Notes: generated from the sequence alone by a model not told the origin. A stretch of 64,000 bases of DNA from Escherichia phage vB_Eco_F22 (OP870143.1), one strand, 5' to 3'. Positions 13,164 through 34,769 are shown, counted from the first letter of the stretch. Numbers and translations are program-made.

Positions 13164-13236
13164 GTAGCTGCCTAAATAGCCCAGCATAGTTGGGCTATTT
13201 GTGAAGAAACTAACTCAACCCCACATAGGAACTATC

Positions 13237-13497
13237 ATGGAATCTTTAGCAGCAATCCTTATTCTGTTATTTGCACTAGCTGTATACCTTATCCCTACCA
13301 TTATTGCTTTTGCACGGGGCCATGCCTCTAAGTGGGGAATTGGTGTACTCAACATCGTATTAGGCTGGTCTTTGGTCTTCTGGGTAGTAGCACTGATTTG
13401 GTCACTGTCTAATAAAGGACAGTCTCAGACTACAATCGTTAACGTTGGTAGTGGGAACCAATACAACGTGTCTCAAACGAGCCAGTCTGATAAGTAA
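13237..13497 (+). CDS. Small membrane protein resembling the superinfection-immunity (Imm-like) family; track start 13201 is GTG
   Basis: LIPTIIAFARGHASKWGIGVLNIVLGWSLVFWVVALIWSL resembles the Imm_superinfect signature; ATG 13237 has AGGA RBS. Confidence 0.5.
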   Translation: MESLAAILILLFALAVYLIPTIIAFARGHASKWGIGVLNIVLGWSLVFWVVALIWSLSNKGQSQTTIVNVGSGNQYNVSQTSQSDK

Positions 13498-13571
13498 CTA
13501 ACCTAAGCATCATTGCATAGTGGTGCTTGTGGAAGTTACTTTCAGCTCATTGCTTATCCATCTCCTAATCC

Positions 13572-13599
13572 AAGCCCACCTAACCCGTGGGCTTTTTTA
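13572..13599 (+). terminator. Intrinsic terminator
   Basis: Hairpin AAGCCCAC-CTAACCC-GTGGGCTT followed by TTTTTAA. Confidence 0.65.
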
Positions 13600-13614
13600 A
13601 TTACAGGTACTCTT

Positions 13615-13998
13615 ATGTCAAACAGACAAAATGGTAAGTCTATCTTATATGGACTGGACTTAAGTAAACTGGAACAAACTGCAATGCTTACTTTAGGTAA
13701 AACTATACATGACCAAGTAGAGAATGAAATAGAATCAGATGTTTATGCAGCAATGCAAGCTGCTATTCTGAAAGGATGGACTAGTAGATCATTTAATGTT
13801 TTCCCATACATCCCTCCTGAACCTCATCTGAAATCTAAGGTAGACCGTATCATAGATAAGTTCTGGCTTAGTCCTTGCTATGACGAAATGCATCTTTACC
13901 TGGCTCAAATACAAAAGAATCCACGTACTAAGGATTTGTTCAAAGGCAAGAGCACTACCCATCATTACCCTTGGTATAGAAGAGGTAGTAAATACTAA
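13615..13998 (+). CDS. Hypothetical protein (track ORF 13513..13998, trimmed to the first Met after the terminator hairpin)
   Basis: ORF; hairpin plus T-run at 13572..13599 sits inside the longer track ORF. Confidence 0.4.
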   Translation: MSNRQNGKSILYGLDLSKLEQTAMLTLGKTIHDQVENEIESDVYAAMQAAILKGWTSRSFNVFPYIPPEPHLKSKVDRIIDKFWLSPCYDEMHLYLAQIQKNPRTKDLFKGKSTTHHYPWYRRGSKY

Positions 13999-15618: not shown

Positions 15619-15623
15619 ACCTA

Positions 15624-15650
15624 AGACCTCCTCCGGGAGGTCTTTTTTTG
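15624..15650 (+). terminator. Intrinsic terminator
   Basis: Hairpin AGACCTCC-TCCG-GGAGGTCT followed by TTTTTTTG. Confidence 0.75.
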
Positions 15651-16382: not shown

Positions 16383-16409
16383 GCAACATTTAAACTGGAG
16401 AGTAAATAA

Positions 16410-18974
16410 ATGTTAGTTGCAGATACTAATCAATCAGCCACTTCAGCGACACTGGGTGGCAAAGAAGCAATCGCCTTTGGCATCTCTGATGACCCGGCAT
16501 TCTTTCACGTATTAAGTACTTCCTTGTATAACAACCCTACTCTGGCAGTAGTCCGTGAGACTATCTGTAACAGTTGGGATGCCCACATTGAAACAGGTAA
16601 GACTGATACACCTATCCGTATTACCATTGATACTGACAACTTTATTACCTTCCGTGACTTTGGTAACGGAATCCCGGATGAACTCATTGGTTCCATTTAC
16701 GGTGTCTATGGTGCATCCACTAAGAAGTCCAACAGCAGTGTTACTGGTGGCTTTGGTCTGGGATGTAAATCCCCATTCGCTTATACAGATAGCTTCCAGG
16801 TTACTTCATGGAACCAAGGAAAGATGTCTGTGTATAACGTAGCTAAGGCTGCAATTGAGAATGATGGTAAACCAGGTATTGTTCCTATTGTTACTGGTAT
16901 TCCTACTGAGGAATCTGGTCTGGAAGTTAAATTCCAGTTAGGTAAGCACGACGTAAATACCTTTGTGCATTACATCACATCAATTGTGTTTAACGGTGAA
17001 ATTAAGGCCGAGCTTAGTCTTCCCAAATTAATTCGTGAAGAAACAGGTAATAGTATTCAACAAGGTGACTACACGCTACTGAATACATTAGGTATGTCAT
17101 TTGAACCTGGTTCGTATGATATGTCTGATAGCTGGTATCAAAGCTATATGGGTAGCAGTAACATCTTTGTTCGTTACGGTAACGTAATGTACCCAATAGT
17201 ATCCAGCCCAGCTAGTGAAGAAGCTGTAGGTCTTATTCTCAACTTCATGAATATTATTGGTGCTGACACTTTAGTAGTTCAGGCTGCACCAGATACCTTA
17301 GCTATTGCCCCTAGTCGTGAAACCCTGTCTAACCAGAAGCTAACTGACGATGGTATTACTGCTCTATGTGTAGATTTAGTAGACCGTATGGAGAAAGAGA
17401 TTAAGGCTAAGATTCCTGAAGCTATTAAGCAGATTGAAGAATACGCCTCTGAATCTTCTACTCAATATTGGGAATACCCATCTTTCCTGGGTGCTGTTAC
17501 AGATAGAACTGTTCAACGCTATATGTCCTCCAGTTTGTGGGCTAAGCAACGTAAGCATCATATTAAGCACTGGCGTAATCTATCCAATAAGGCATTACTA
17601 GCTCGCCCTGAGTATGCAGGTCTTAAAAAACTGTATAGTAAAGCTATGAGTGCTCTTAAGGATACTCGTGCAGATGGTACAAGATACCCATTCCAGGAAT
17701 TAGTATACCGGCATCTGCACTTACCTCAGCTTGCTGCTTTAAAAGCCACTGGTATTAAGTGGTCTGGTTACATAATGAACCAAGGTTATAGTGTTGACCT
17801 GGTGAAAGGTAAACTTACTGACTACTTTAAGATAGGTTATAACTCCCATCTAGGTATTGGTATTTTCACTACTAAGAACGTTGTAGTTACTCGACGTTTA
17901 TCTGATTGTGCAGACTCTTTCTCATACTTCCCTGAATACAACCGGGGTGACCTGGAGCGTACAGCTTTTGTTCACGTCGTTGGTCCTAAGAAGGGTGAAG
18001 CAGAAAAAGCTGTAGCAAAGTTCACTGCTATGGGTTATCGGGTAATTGACCTTACTCAATATAATGAGTGGGACAAGCCAACTAACTTCCGTAGAGAACA
18101 GGCTAAGATAGCTGCCGAGAAGCGTGCTAAGACAATAGCTGCCAATAAAACCAAAGCAGGAGGTAAAACTAATGCACTGGTTTCATTGAATGCTGTACTA
18201 GGTATTATTCGTGAACGAAATATGAGTGGTGATTGGGAATCCAGGCCATATATTCAGGGGGAGTTTGCTGACCCAATCTACCATGAGAAGTCTGGTTTTG
18301 TTGAAGTAGAACTGCCCAAGTACTACGTACCAGCCAATCAGGTTGGTTCTGGTAGACCAGAAACTGCCAAGATAGGAACCATGTGGAAATGGTATGAACT
18401 GTCCGATGAGATGAAAGCAGAAACTGTTGTCTGTCGTAATCAAATCGAAGTTAACAAGGCCAAACGTCGTGGTGCTATTCACATTGACGATATTCGTCTT
18501 AATGAACTGATGTCTGTTATTACCAGTAAGGGATTCAAGAAGTATGTCACTGAACAGCGTATCGGTGTTCTGGAATATGTAGGACTGGATGACAGAGAAT
18601 ACTGGGAAATTCTCGACATTCTGGGACTAACATTCAAACCATTACAGAATCTGGTTCTTAAACCAGAGTATGAATGGGCGTGTGACTTCCTAAGAAACCA
18701 TCCACGTAACAAAGAGAGACTTATTGAGATGGGCCTCATTAAGTCAGTAGACGACTTAGAGCCATATGTAAGGATGGTTAATCCCCGTATGCACAAGCAT
18801 TACGAAGTACTTAAAAAGTACAAAGAACTATTCTGTTATAGCTGGGGTGCTGGTGACATCCTACAGAGCCTGGACTTGGGTAATTTAGTTAAACATCTCA
18901 AGAAGAATCCAGAGGATATTCCTGGGTTTAAGCCCCTCTACCATAATCGTCTAAATAAACTGAAAGGTAAATAA
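16410..18974 (+). CDS. rIIA: GHKL-family ATPase, rIIA-like protein
   Basis: ETICNSWDAH (N-box), FRDFGNGIP (G1), GGFGLGCKS (G2) in the N-terminal region; 854 aa. Confidence 0.55.
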   Translation: MLVADTNQSATSATLGGKEAIAFGISDDPAFFHVLSTSLYNNPTLAVVRETICNSWDAHIETGKTDTPIRITIDTDNFITFRDFGNGIPDELIGSIYGVYGASTKKSNSSVTGGFGLGCKSPFAYTDSFQVTSWNQGKMSVYNVAKAAIENDGKPGIVPIVTGIPTEESGLEVKFQLGKHDVNTFVHYITSIVFNGEIKAELSLPKLIREETGNSIQQGDYTLLNTLGMSFEPGSYDMSDSWYQSYMGSSNIFVRYGNVMYPIVSSPASEEAVGLILNFMNIIGADTLVVQAAPDTLAIAPSRETLSNQKLTDDGITALCVDLVDRMEKEIKAKIPEAIKQIEEYASESSTQYWEYPSFLGAVTDRTVQRYMSSSLWAKQRKHHIKHWRNLSNKALLARPEYAGLKKLYSKAMSALKDTRADGTRYPFQELVYRHLHLPQLAALKATGIKWSGYIMNQGYSVDLVKGKLTDYFKIGYNSHLGIGIFTTKNVVVTRRLSDCADSFSYFPEYNRGDLERTAFVHVVGPKKGEAEKAVAKFTAMGYRVIDLTQYNEWDKPTNFRREQAKIAAEKRAKTIAANKTKAGGKTNALVSLNAVLGIIRERNMSGDWESRPYIQGEFADPIYHEKSGFVEVELPKYYVPANQVGSGRPETAKIGTMWKWYELSDEMKAETVVCRNQIEVNKAKRRGAIHIDDIRLNELMSVITSKGFKKYVTEQRIGVLEYVGLDDREYWEILDILGLTFKPLQNLVLKPEYEWACDFLRNHPRNKERLIEMGLIKSVDDLEPYVRMVNPRMHKHYEVLKKYKELFCYSWGAGDILQSLDLGNLVKHLKKNPEDIPGFKPLYHNRLNKLKGK

Positions 18975-18978
18975 TCTG

Positions 18979-21024
18979 ATGAAAATCGAATTGATTTCTA
19001 TCATCGCACTGGCAGTTGACAGTCGAAACCTCACACTGTGGAAGCCAGATGGCTCCACGGTTGTATATCCACAGAGTGACCCACGGGTTGCTCGTATTGT
19101 ATCTGAAGCACAGACTAAAGGTCTGGGCACTATCCATGACCAAATAGAAGTAAACATTGCACCAGAAGTAGAGTTACGTATTGAATATCTGGAAGCAGAG
19201 AAGAACACCAACGGATTCGTCCGTTTCTTCAAGGTAGCTAAGGCTAAGCTAAAAGAGTTCTTCGAGGACGGTACAAGTAACCAGCCAGCTCGTATCATTT
19301 CAGATATTAAGCTGGGTAATCCTATTAAGACATTAGTATCTAAAGCTATGGATACCTTCCTGGCTGTTCAGGCTAATGAACCAGAAGTAACAGTAGCAGA
19401 TGGTTGCTATGACAAACGTGACAATCTGATGTGGGTTACTGGTTGGGACAAAGACCATAACCATCTTGCACTGGTTCGTTTTATTAACGACGTACTGGGT
19501 TGGGGTTATGACCATACTAATCGCATCCTTGCACGGGAATGGCCTATTGCAATTCGTGCGGTATCCGATGATGAAATGGGTGAGTTTGCTAAACAAGCTC
19601 AGAATATCAAAGGCGTACACGTTGTATTTACCAATCGTGAAGAAACACCACTGCCTTATGTGGAAGTGGTTAAAACTACTAACCAGGATAAGCTGGCTGC
19701 TGCTTCAGAGAAGCTGGCTGCATTAGGTGCTATCAGTACTGATGATGCTAACTTCCACACTGATGTGAAGGAAGATGAGGTAGTTGTTGCTGTTACCAAC
19801 AATGGGGTTATCCCTGGGGTTGAGAACCTGCAACGTCACCTGCGTCAGTCTGCCAAGCTGAAAGACTACAAGGGCTTTACCAAGTTCCTTGAGCGTCTGG
19901 CCCCGGTTATTAAAGACCGTCTGCACTCAGTGGAAGACCTGATGAAGTTCATGGAAACTGCTGAACTGCCTATCGCTGATGATGGCTCCATCCTGTTCCT
20001 GAAACGACTTAAGTTCAGGAGTACAGAAGATGGTAAACGTGTATTCGTTGACTGTCACTCAGGCAACATCCGTCAGTGGGTAGGCTGTAAAGTACAGGTA
20101 CGAGAAGACCTGGTAGACCCTGACCGTCGTCAGGACTGCTCCAATGGTCTGCACGTAGCATCCATGAGTTACATCCGTACCTTCGGCGGTAACGTAACTA
20201 TCCTTGGTAAAGTAGCACCAGAAGATGTATTTGCTGTTCCTGAGTACAACACTAATAAGATGCGTGTAGCTGCGTATCACATTATTGCTGAACTACCAGA
20301 AGAAGAACGTTGCAACGTTAACAATGGCATCTATCTGTCTAAGACAGAAGTAGGTAAGAAGTTACTTAATGATGCCATCGTTGGGAACCATAGCTCACCT
20401 ACCACACTTGTTATGGTTGGTGGTCACTATGGTACTAACCTCAAATACACTAATCTCTCATCTGGTTTTGTAGAACAATTCCGTACAGTTGCTAATAAAG
20501 AAGCACTGAATATGGAAGAGTCACTGAATGAAGCTGTAGCCGCTGAACCAGTGAAGGCTACTGACCTTAAACCTGTTGTTAAGAAGGCTCCAACTGTGAA
20601 AGAACAAATTCAGGAACTCCTTGGTGAGTTCTTATCTGCATCTACTATGGAAGATAAGTTAGCTGCTGCTGACTTATTGGTAGAGTTACGTGGCAAAGCT
20701 CGTAAGCCTTGGGCTGCTCTAGGTGTTTGTAGTTCTGCTGTAGATGCTATTGCTGCTGTACGTAGTACTCGTATTCCTGTTCCAAAGCCTGAACCAGTGA
20801 AGAAAGCTAAGGCTGTCCGTTCGGCTGCTGCTACTAAAGTAGCTCCGTCCGGTAAACACGCTGATAACCTGCGTAGCATCCTGAACGATACGTCATATTC
20901 TGACTATCAGAAAGGCCATGCTCTGCAAGACTATAAGCGTCATGCTAAGAAGTCGTTCACTGCAATGGGTCTGACTGAAGAAGAAGCTAACTTAGCTACC
21001 AAACTGGTCAAAGCTGCTAAGTAA
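18979..21024 (+). CDS. Hypothetical protein, possible rIIB-like partner (681 aa, Ala/Lys-rich C-terminus)
   Basis: Large ORF immediately downstream of the rIIA-like gene; no motif verified. Confidence 0.35.
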   Translation: MKIELISIIALAVDSRNLTLWKPDGSTVVYPQSDPRVARIVSEAQTKGLGTIHDQIEVNIAPEVELRIEYLEAEKNTNGFVRFFKVAKAKLKEFFEDGTSNQPARIISDIKLGNPIKTLVSKAMDTFLAVQANEPEVTVADGCYDKRDNLMWVTGWDKDHNHLALVRFINDVLGWGYDHTNRILAREWPIAIRAVSDDEMGEFAKQAQNIKGVHVVFTNREETPLPYVEVVKTTNQDKLAAASEKLAALGAISTDDANFHTDVKEDEVVVAVTNNGVIPGVENLQRHLRQSAKLKDYKGFTKFLERLAPVIKDRLHSVEDLMKFMETAELPIADDGSILFLKRLKFRSTEDGKRVFVDCHSGNIRQWVGCKVQVREDLVDPDRRQDCSNGLHVASMSYIRTFGGNVTILGKVAPEDVFAVPEYNTNKMRVAAYHIIAELPEEERCNVNNGIYLSKTEVGKKLLNDAIVGNHSSPTTLVMVGGHYGTNLKYTNLSSGFVEQFRTVANKEALNMEESLNEAVAAEPVKATDLKPVVKKAPTVKEQIQELLGEFLSASTMEDKLAAADLLVELRGKARKPWAALGVCSSAVDAIAAVRSTRIPVPKPEPVKKAKAVRSAAATKVAPSGKHADNLRSILNDTSYSDYQKGHALQDYKRHAKKSFTAMGLTEEEANLATKLVKAAK

Positions 21025-21086
21025 TAGCCTGTTCAAATGCCCTCACTTATAATAAAGTGAGGGTAAATTTGAAGAGGAAATGTACT

Positions 21087-21482
21087 ATGAGTAGTGTATA
21101 TCGTGTAAACCGTAAGGCTACTGATGAAGACATCATTCGAATGAATGCTGTTGGATTGTCTCTGGCAACCATTGCTAAAACATTGGGTGTTCACCCAACA
21201 ACCGTGACCTTACGGTTACGTTCTTTAAACATTGAACCAGCCGACACACGTCGGACGTTCATGGAGAATGTACTCCGTCCATTACCAACCCATGTGGCAG
21301 ATTGGCTATCAGAACAAGTTGGTCCTGCTTATGAGATTCGTTCATATGTAAGGGACTTGATTCTGGAGGCATATAATAATCGCCACCTTAACCAAGAGAG
21401 TGAGCATGACAAGTTCATCCGTTTGTACGCTGGAAAGAACCGAAGCCTGGTTCAAGAAAGCAGTACCGAATCCGACGAGTAA
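21087..21482 (+). CDS. Putative HTH DNA-binding protein (track ORF 21057..21482)
   Basis: LSLATIAKTLGVHPTTV helix-turn-helix-like segment; GAGGAA RBS before ATG 21087. Confidence 0.45.
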   Translation: MSSVYRVNRKATDEDIIRMNAVGLSLATIAKTLGVHPTTVTLRLRSLNIEPADTRRTFMENVLRPLPTHVADWLSEQVGPAYEIRSYVRDLILEAYNNRHLNQESEHDKFIRLYAGKNRSLVQESSTESDE

Positions 21483-21858
21483 GAACATTAGTACCCAGGT
21501 GGGCTGTCACCTGGAAGAAGTAGCAGAGATGCTTAATGCCCTCACTAACGCTGACCCAGAGTTAGCTAGTAAGATGGGCTTCCTAAGTGAAGCCATTGAC
21601 CACGTAGGTAACCTCATCAAAAAGAATGGGGGTATTGTGGTCAAAGACCGTGTGGAACTGTTGGATGCTCTGGCTGATCAGATTGTTACAGCAACTGGCA
21701 TCGGTACTTTCCTTGGGATGAATGTCCCTGGAGCATTGGCTGAAGTCAATCGCTCAAACTATTCTAAGTTCGAAGATGGAGAACCCATCTTCAATGAGAA
21801 CAAGAAAGTCATGAAGGGGAAAGACTATACGCCACCAGACCTGAGTAAATTTATCTGA
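21400..21858 (+). CDS. MazG-like NTP pyrophosphohydrolase candidate (start uncertain; overlaps upstream gene by 83 nt)
   Basis: HLEEVAEM and ELLDALADQIVTATGIG resemble MazG EExxE and helix motifs. Confidence 0.4.
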   Translation: MSMTSSSVCTLERTEAWFKKAVPNPTSKNISTQVGCHLEEVAEMLNALTNADPELASKMGFLSEAIDHVGNLIKKNGGIVVKDRVELLDALADQIVTATGIGTFLGMNVPGALAEVNRSNYSKFEDGEPIFNENKKVMKGKDYTPPDLSKFI

Positions 21859-22000: not shown

Positions 22001-22024
22001 TAACCCTCTACGGAGGGTTTTTTA
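22001..22024 (+). terminator. Intrinsic terminator upstream of the helicase gene
   Basis: Hairpin AACCCTC-TACG-GAGGGTT followed by TTTTTAC. Confidence 0.7.
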
Positions 22025-34461: not shown

Positions 34462-34535
34462 GTCCACTTAGCTTAGACTGGGAAAGCAACCGACTAATAA
34501 TCGGAAGGTCACTGGTTCAAATCCAGTAGTGGACA
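34462..34535 (+). tRNA. tRNA gene (74 nt); anticodon loop CTAATAA, anticodon tentatively AAT; CCA not encoded
   Basis: Manual cloverleaf: acceptor GTCCACT/AGTGGAC (7 bp), D-stem GCTT/AAGC with GG in loop, 4-bp anticodon stem CCGA/TCGG, T-arm ACTGG-TTCAAAT-CCAGT. Confidence 0.5.
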
Positions 34536-34769
34536 CCTATTCAGCAGTAACATAGTCCTGATTGCATAGCACTCTAAAGACAACACTGGTAAGACAGTCC
34601 AGTGGCTGCTAATGTATTGTTATTCCCCTCGACGGGAATTTCGCTAGTGAAGGTAACACTTAAAAATCCAAAGCTACGTCTTACTACTATCGGGCTATCA
34701 ACCCACGGTCGCTTAACCCTATAGCGGTAGTAGTTTGACGGCCTGCCTCGTTGACTGCGTTAAAGTCAC

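Follow-up and report, generated by a model that had tools for sequence, protein, structure and literature searches.

Escherichia phage vB_Eco_F22 (OP870143.1) is an N4-like coliphage (Gamaleyavirus, Schitoviridae), and within the 64,000-nucleotide (nt) stretch of its genome analysed here, which we call the window, a gene for an 854-residue protein with ATPase motifs is followed directly by one for a 681-residue partner. An initial annotation had likened the two products to rIIA and rIIB of phage T4, and the locus raises the question of whether they are an rII pair, and what such a pair does in a phage of this type. We consider it very likely that they form the rII module of this N4-like phage, co-transcribed and probably translationally coupled, and that the module is a non-essential counter-defence against abortive infection of the Rex type. 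Also in the window are genes for ThyX, a family A DNA polymerase, and a RecD-like helicase, together with an open reading frame (ORF) of 3,615 amino acids (aa), the size of a virion RNA polymerase.

Identity of the rII pair

Both ORFs lie on the + strand at the positions initially assigned to them, with the rIIA-like gene immediately upstream of the rIIB-like gene and a spacer of 4 nt between the stop of the first and the start of the second:

16410..18974, + strand: rIIA-like gene, 854 aa, ATG start; orthologue of N4 gp33 and G7C gp33
18979..21024, + strand: rIIB-like gene, 681 aa, ATG start; orthologue of N4 gp34 and G7C gp34

The pair is already known: both genes have rII annotations in the GenBank record of vB_Eco_F22 and are counted among the core genes of N4-like phages. 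WBF79668.1, the 'rIIA lysis inhibitor' of Escherichia phage vB_Eco_F22, matches the 854-aa protein exactly, and the 681-aa protein is 100% identical to the GenBank 'rIIB lysis inhibitor' of the same phage. The 4.6-kb rII stretch has 88-92% DNA identity to the Gamaleyavirus genomes Bas96, PhAPEC5/7, G7C, and IME11, in which the same two genes carry rIIA-like and rIIB-like annotations. Full-length, collinear alignments give the rIIA-like protein 40.6% identity to N4 gp33 and 90.5% to G7C gp33, and the rIIB-like protein 46.6% identity to N4 gp34 and 92.5% to G7C gp34. Among PHROG families, the rIIA-like protein matches phrog_2979 'RIIA' (E 4.9e-292) and phrog_612, the family of T4 rIIA itself (E 1.8e-66), while the rIIB-like protein matches phrog_2886 'RIIB' (E 8.7e-209) and phrog_609 (E 4.5e-28); precomputed Pfam annotation places PF26926 on all close homologues of the rIIB-like protein.

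Comparison with T4, which had been suggested as a check, gives BLASTP matches for both proteins: 28% identity to T4 rIIA across aa 17-351 (E 7e-27), and 31% identity to T4 rIIB between aa 284-442 and T4 residues 159-310 (E 1e-18); an rIIB profile built from 102 sequences aligns to T4 rIIB by hhalign with a probability of 99.06%. The support for rII identity is thus made up of the exact GenBank matches, the DNA identity to G7C, Bas96, and PhAPEC7, the collinearity with N4, and the similarity to T4; the PHROG and T4 matches go far past anything expected by chance. N4-like phage genome papers list rII genes routinely (for example, that of EC1-UPM), and because the pair has been annotated already and its N4 orthologues have a published Rex phenotype, the finding is correct but ordinary.

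The initial annotation described the 681-aa protein as an unusually long rIIB analogue. The match to the T4 rIIB core upholds the analogy, but the length is unusual only relative to T4, whose rIIB is 312 aa. Of 80 N4-like viral loci, 78 have an rIIB-like ORF (476-840 aa) directly after the rIIA-like one (788-937 aa), the spacing ranging from -265 to +26 nt, and the remaining two loci end at a contig edge; the long protein is thus the normal form of rIIB in N4-like phages. Searching the whole library for rIIB yielded 5,868 clusters with E<=1e-3; at the stricter limit of E<=1e-30, 579 clusters (formed at 50% identity) remain, and lengths are typically 450-760 aa. We note separately that phrog_609, which is labelled RIIB and has 1,055 profile positions, matches rIIA N-termini at about 19-310 and rIIB cores at about 750-1049, indicating either that fused rIIA-rIIB proteins exist somewhere or that this PHROG is chimeric; there are no fused proteins among the 80 viral loci.

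The rIIA-like protein as a predicted two-domain GHL-type ATPase

Three regions can be distinguished in the rIIA-like protein, the last of them delimited by tblastn, by comparison with T4, and by the structural model:

16494..16979, + strand: GHKL (Bergerat-fold) ATP-binding domain, aa ~29-190, with N-box E50/N54/D57, G1 D83-x-G85-x-G87, and G2 G113-G118
16980..17459, + strand: transducer/middle-domain-like second domain, aa ~191-350, with an invariant APSRE motif (R303, E304)
17460..18971, + strand: mostly helical, lineage-specific C-terminal region, aa ~351-854

The Pfam family HATPase_c_3 matches aa 47-155 with an E value of 2.4e-9 and a score of 37.7 bits (cut-off 25), and T4 rIIA itself scores 22.1. 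Residues E50, N54, and D57 of the N-box, D83, G85, and G87 of G1, and G113-G118 of G2 are invariant in an alignment of the window, N4, and T4 proteins and in 111 diverse homologues, and so are K105, K120, R303, and E304. The GHKL N-box and G1/G2 motifs reported initially are borne out by this profile score and these invariant residues and, together with the similarity of the partner to rIIB, both of the points on which the earlier proposal could have failed hold.

In the AlphaFold2 model, the mean predicted local distance difference test score (pLDDT) is 67.5, rising to 85-96 across aa 40-340 with the exception of the lid (106-118). The best structural matches of the model are TRAP1 (16.9), GRP94 (16.0), and MORC3 and MORC2 (15.0), followed by the T6 topoisomerase II ATPase (14.9), ParE (14.6), SMCHD1 (14.5), and MutL (13.8), and histidine kinases score no higher than 7 in the same comparison. 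Because the top matches align across 250-337 residues and the histidine kinases score so low, we group rIIA with the two-domain dimerising GHL clamps and not with the kinases. The protein has what defines the GHL group, a Bergerat fold next to a transducer/middle domain from which the active site receives a basic residue, and the rIIA family profile finds TRAP1 by sequence (E 6e-4) through an Hsp90-like "LSxxLYxxxxxxxRELxxNxxDA" stretch. The catalytic glutamate, Mg-binding asparagine, adenine-binding aspartate, and glycine loops are all intact, and from the conservation of these catalytic residues the protein is predicted to bind and hydrolyse ATP.

The C-terminal half is of a different character. 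A tblastn search with aa ~390-854 finds only 125 records, all of enterobacterial N4-like phages, and BLASTP gives no significant match of the C-terminal region to T4 rIIA. Neither single-sequence nor profile searches identify a solved rIIA structure, returning only marginal GHKL matches to Top6B and TRAP1.

Anatomy of the long-form rIIB

The AlphaFold2 model of the rIIB-like protein has a mean pLDDT of 87.6 and a predicted template modelling score of 0.69, and we delimited its parts from this model and from occupancy in the 102-sequence alignment:

18979..19275, + strand: conserved beta-rich N-terminal domain of long-form rIIB, aa 1-99 (alignment occupancy 0.91-1.0; pLDDT 89-97)
19420..19644, + strand: lineage-specific inserted alpha/beta domain, aa ~148-222, with a fold like that of the L7/L12 C-terminal domain or ClpS (fold match)
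19819..20313, + strand: core domain, aa 281-445, common to T4 rIIB (T4 aa ~159-310), with motifs VDCHS and CSNGLH
20584..20778, + strand: C-terminal three-helix module, copy 1, aa 536-600 (helices 540-553, 557-574, 585-596; motif K571, K575, W578, L581, G582)
20842..21021, + strand: C-terminal three-helix module, copy 2, aa 622-681 (helices 626-636, 642-656, 667-680; motif K653, K657, L663, G664)

The N-terminal domain, in which D14, Y21, G25, Q32, G33, D34, and R36 are each at least 90% conserved in the alignment, is followed by a disordered linker, and the insert matches the alpha/beta fold of ClpS and of the ribosomal L7/L12 C-terminal domain. The core is modelled with a pLDDT mostly of 90-97 and is continued by a conserved extension to about aa 500; on its own it has tblastn matches in about 2,500 phage records, and its invariant residues include R306, D358, D380, C387, S388, G390, L391, H392, Y398, K427, R429, and Y433. 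Structure comparison found no solved relative of the core, and single-sequence and profile searches found no solved structure for rIIB; neither rIIA nor rIIB has a deposited structure. A candidate Cys2His2 zinc site in the core was rejected on the grounds that only 74 of the 102 sequences have C359.

The motif of copy 1 is at least 90% conserved in the alignment, and hhalign identifies the two terminal modules as homologues with a probability of 99.15% (E 4e-19), with KKxxKKSWxxLG as the shared motif. The repeat is seen only when profile is compared with profile, BLAST self-comparison giving nothing significant.

What the core itself might do is suggested by its invariant polar residues (D358, D380, R383, C387-S388, H392, Y398, K427, R429, and Y433), by the Cys...His pair in CSxGLH, by the confidence of the model, and by its occurrence from T4 through the N4-like phages. 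It could be a module with an enzymatic or ligand-binding function, its fold having no solved relative, that is loaded or regulated by the GHL ATPase rIIA, with the L7/L12/ClpS-like insert and the tandem KKxxKKSWxxLG modules serving as adaptors that would dock the complex onto host targets. Taken jointly, this enzyme-and-adaptor proposal is a speculative one and in our view improbable; if it were true, the 70-year-old rII problem would become tractable biochemistry.

Selection on the two genes

Ratios of nonsynonymous to synonymous substitution rates (dN/dS) were computed for the window against four Gamaleyaviruses. For the whole genes they are 0.13-0.16 (rIIA) and 0.15-0.22 (rIIB), from which we conclude that both genes are real and under purifying selection. 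Parts of the proteins, and two replication proteins, compare as follows:

GHKL domain: dN/dS 0.01-0.08
rIIB core: dN/dS 0.08-0.12
rIIA C-terminal part: dN/dS 0.16-0.25
rIIB C-terminal modules (aa 540-681), the fastest-evolving part of rIIB: dN/dS 0.19-0.37
DNA polymerase and helicase: dN/dS ~0.025

The pattern is one of conserved engines with faster-changing interaction surfaces, that is, an arms-race pattern.

Function of the rII module

The evidence that the module acts against Rex comes from other phages. When RIIA or RIIB of T4, MM02, EdH4, SUSP1, and N4 is knocked down by CRISPRi-ART, the efficiency of plating is unaffected on Rex- E. coli and reduced on lambda RexAB+ cells (PMC11879866), and HIDEN-SEQ has confirmed the conditional essentiality of T4 rII. 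The plating test on Rex-type hosts that the initial annotation put forward has thereby been published for the N4 orthologues. By extension, the vB_Eco_F22 pair would keep Rex-type abortive-infection systems from depolarising the membrane. We envisage that rIIA would act as an ATP-driven dimerising clamp, in the manner of Hsp90, MORC, and MutL, in a complex with rIIB. No conserved hydrophobic segment of transmembrane strength is present in the window, N4, or T4 rII proteins, and the complex would therefore be soluble or peripheral. It may bind, and then mask, sequester, or remodel, what RexA senses, or RexA itself, with the consequence that the RexB channel would never be opened. The faster-evolving peripheral domains (the C-terminal half of rIIA, the rIIB insert, and the terminal modules of rIIB) would set the target specificity.

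Several points weigh against this account. The literature search found no experiment on any Gamaleyavirus rII module, and the Rex phenotype comes from N4, whose proteins are only 41% and 47% identical to those here; the role proposed for vB_Eco_F22 is thus extrapolated from N4. In the literature searched we found no mechanistic or structural study of rII, and its mechanism, which the initial annotation called unclear, is unexplained even in T4, so that the clamp-and-mask step is inference only. The physical complex of rIIA and rIIB is putative, and confidence in the rIIA model is low to medium over its C-terminal half (pLDDT 45-88). The T4 rII proteins were described in older work as membrane-associated, which the sequences neither explain nor contradict. 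RexA DNA binding does not decide the exclusion of T4 rII mutants (PMC11077077), and this weakens the simple version in which the DNA is masked.

The alternative that survives best is that the module counters, or is sensed by, systems other than RexAB, its lineage-specific domains retargeting it to the abortive-infection systems of O-antigen-bearing E. coli. On its own, T6 RIIB is toxic and activates the CARD/NLR-gasdermin systems of Lysobacter and Pedobacter (PMC10312443); on uropathogenic isolates, the RIIA/RIIB orthologues of Bas37 ranked with the most significant fitness genes; and the peripheral domains are lineage-specific and evolve 2-10 times faster than the cores. However, the literature searched holds no experiment on N4-like rII against other systems, and divergent rII modules (<40% identity) all counter lambda RexAB, which argues for a conserved target. 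We regard this alternative as unlikely.

A role in DNA transactions, with a GHL ATPase and a DNA-binding partner acting on replication or recombination intermediates and Rex evasion following indirectly, seems to us distinctly improbable. It draws on the relationship of the ATPase to the ATPase domains of topoisomerase II, MutL, and MORC, on the position of the genes between thymidylate synthase (thyX) on one side and helicase and DNA polymerase on the other, on a near-threshold N-terminal helix-turn-helix (HTH) motif in T4 rIIB (HTH_7 and HTH_28, aa 7-50), and on the classification of rIIB as a transcription factor by Iyer et al. However, Pfam, NCBIfam, and PHROG show no Toprim or 5Y-CAP/WHD DNA-cleavage domain in either protein, nor was an endonuclease domain detected in either; the absence of such cleavage partners indicates that this is not a topoisomerase, and in structure the ATPase comes closest to Hsp90 and MORC rather than to topoisomerases. 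The window rIIB has no significant HTH by Pfam, and its N-terminal domain and C-terminal modules align to the N-terminal half or HTH region of T4 rIIB with hhalign probabilities of at most 1%; the N-terminal HTH is a feature of the T4 architecture that lies outside the rIIB family core. The rII genes of N4 and T4 are also dispensable on Rex- hosts. Least probable of all is a role in lysis timing, in which the pair would preserve the envelope and postpone lysis, fitting the long latent period of N4-like phages and the delayed lysis of N4: PHROG and RefSeq do label both proteins 'lysis inhibitor' and the T4 record mentions rapid lysis of mutants on certain lysogens, but the label is a historical one, the phenotype is linked in the T4 annotation itself to particular genes of prophages, the N4 knock-down has no plating effect on Rex- hosts, and neither protein has a conserved transmembrane or signal-like segment or any fold likeness to holins, antiholins, or spanins.

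Counter-defence against Rex remains our preferred reading of the pair. As a discovery it matters little, and its residual value is descriptive. The additions made here are modest: a domain map of long-form rIIB, with its tandem repeat, its insert, and a core without a solved relative, and the assignment of the rIIA ATPase module to the Hsp90/MORC-type class. The map offers targets for mutagenesis, namely R303/E304 of the rIIA ATPase, the Cys/His motif of the rIIB core, the duplicated C-terminal module, and the L7/L12/ClpS-like insert.

Expression signals and neighbouring genes

Two signals adjoin the pair:

16397..16400, + strand: Shine-Dalgarno-like GGAG, 9 nt upstream of the rIIA-like ATG, read from the sequence
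21040..21063, + strand: hairpin CCCTCACTT-ATAATA-AAGTGAGGG, 15 nt past the rIIB stop, with a perfect 9-bp stem and a 6-nt loop and no T-run

A stem_loop is annotated at the equivalent position in G7C, and the hairpin may serve as a transcription signal of the N4 type instead of acting as an intrinsic terminator. Terminator-like hairpins with T-runs occur at 15623-15644 and 22002-22019 (by consensus scan only), and these probably flank one transcription unit containing the rII pair. This putative unit also includes three small upstream ORFs, for which no function is assigned, and gp35- and MazG-like genes downstream. The homologue of gp35 (21400-21858, +), which has a weak terminase-small-subunit-like HTH match, and an overlapping MazG-like nucleotide pyrophosphohydrolase gene (21057-21482, +) both appear to share the transcription unit of rIIB.

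A second accessory gene of T4 type lies ~3 kb upstream of the rII pair. It is a 98-aa ORF at 13201-13497 (+) with two hydrophobic helices, a T4 Imm-like counterpart of G7C gp27.1 that matches phrog_1039 'immunity to superinfection' (E 2.2e-34). The ~500 nt at 13498-13997 (+) separate this ORF from the gp29 homologue, where G7C has ~124 nt, constituting an indel relative to G7C; an ORF at 13513-13998 in this DNA, probably starting near aa 35, matches phrog_12812, whose function is unassigned (E 1.9e-72).

An Rfam scan found no RNA family in the rII region, the sole match in the window being a tRNA. This is a single tRNA-Ile gene with anticodon AAT at 34462-34537 (+), identified by ARAGORN, with a 65-bit Rfam match confirming that it is a tRNA. 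For bacteria and their phages, an isoleucine anticodon with A34 is unusual.

Comparison with known systems

Sequence identity to the GHL ATPases (Hsp90/TRAP1/GRP94, MORC2/3, SMCHD1, MutL, and the ATPase subunits of topoisomerases II, IV, and VI) is only 9-18%. In rIIA there is no domain for DNA cleavage, no CW or endonuclease domain, and no C-terminal dimerisation domain of the Hsp90 type; both ATPase activity and dimerisation are predicted for it.

In T4 (Tequatrovirus), rIIA (725 aa) and rIIB are adjacent and in the same order, rIIA preceding rIIB, as in the window. What the two phages have in common is confined to the N-terminal ~340-350 aa of rIIA (the GHKL domain, the second domain, and APSRE) and the ~160-aa core of rIIB with its DCHS and CSxGLH motifs; the C-terminal halves of rIIA are unrelated. 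The core domain is at the end of T4 rIIB, whereas the window protein has, unlike T4, a beta-rich N-terminal domain, the L7/L12/ClpS-like insert, and ~235 extra C-terminal residues that include the tandem three-helix repeat.

The closest counterparts are in other N4-like phages. Near-identical orthologues of the pair are those of G7C, Bas96, PhAPEC5/7, and vB_Eco_F22. In N4 (Enquatrovirus), gp33 and gp34 are 841 and 696 aa, and in G7C they are 854 and 681 aa; both phages have the same gene order, and the pair occupies the same place between thyX and the helicase and polymerase genes, as in the window. The pair does not differ in substance from these counterparts, among which it is N4 whose Rex phenotype has been measured.

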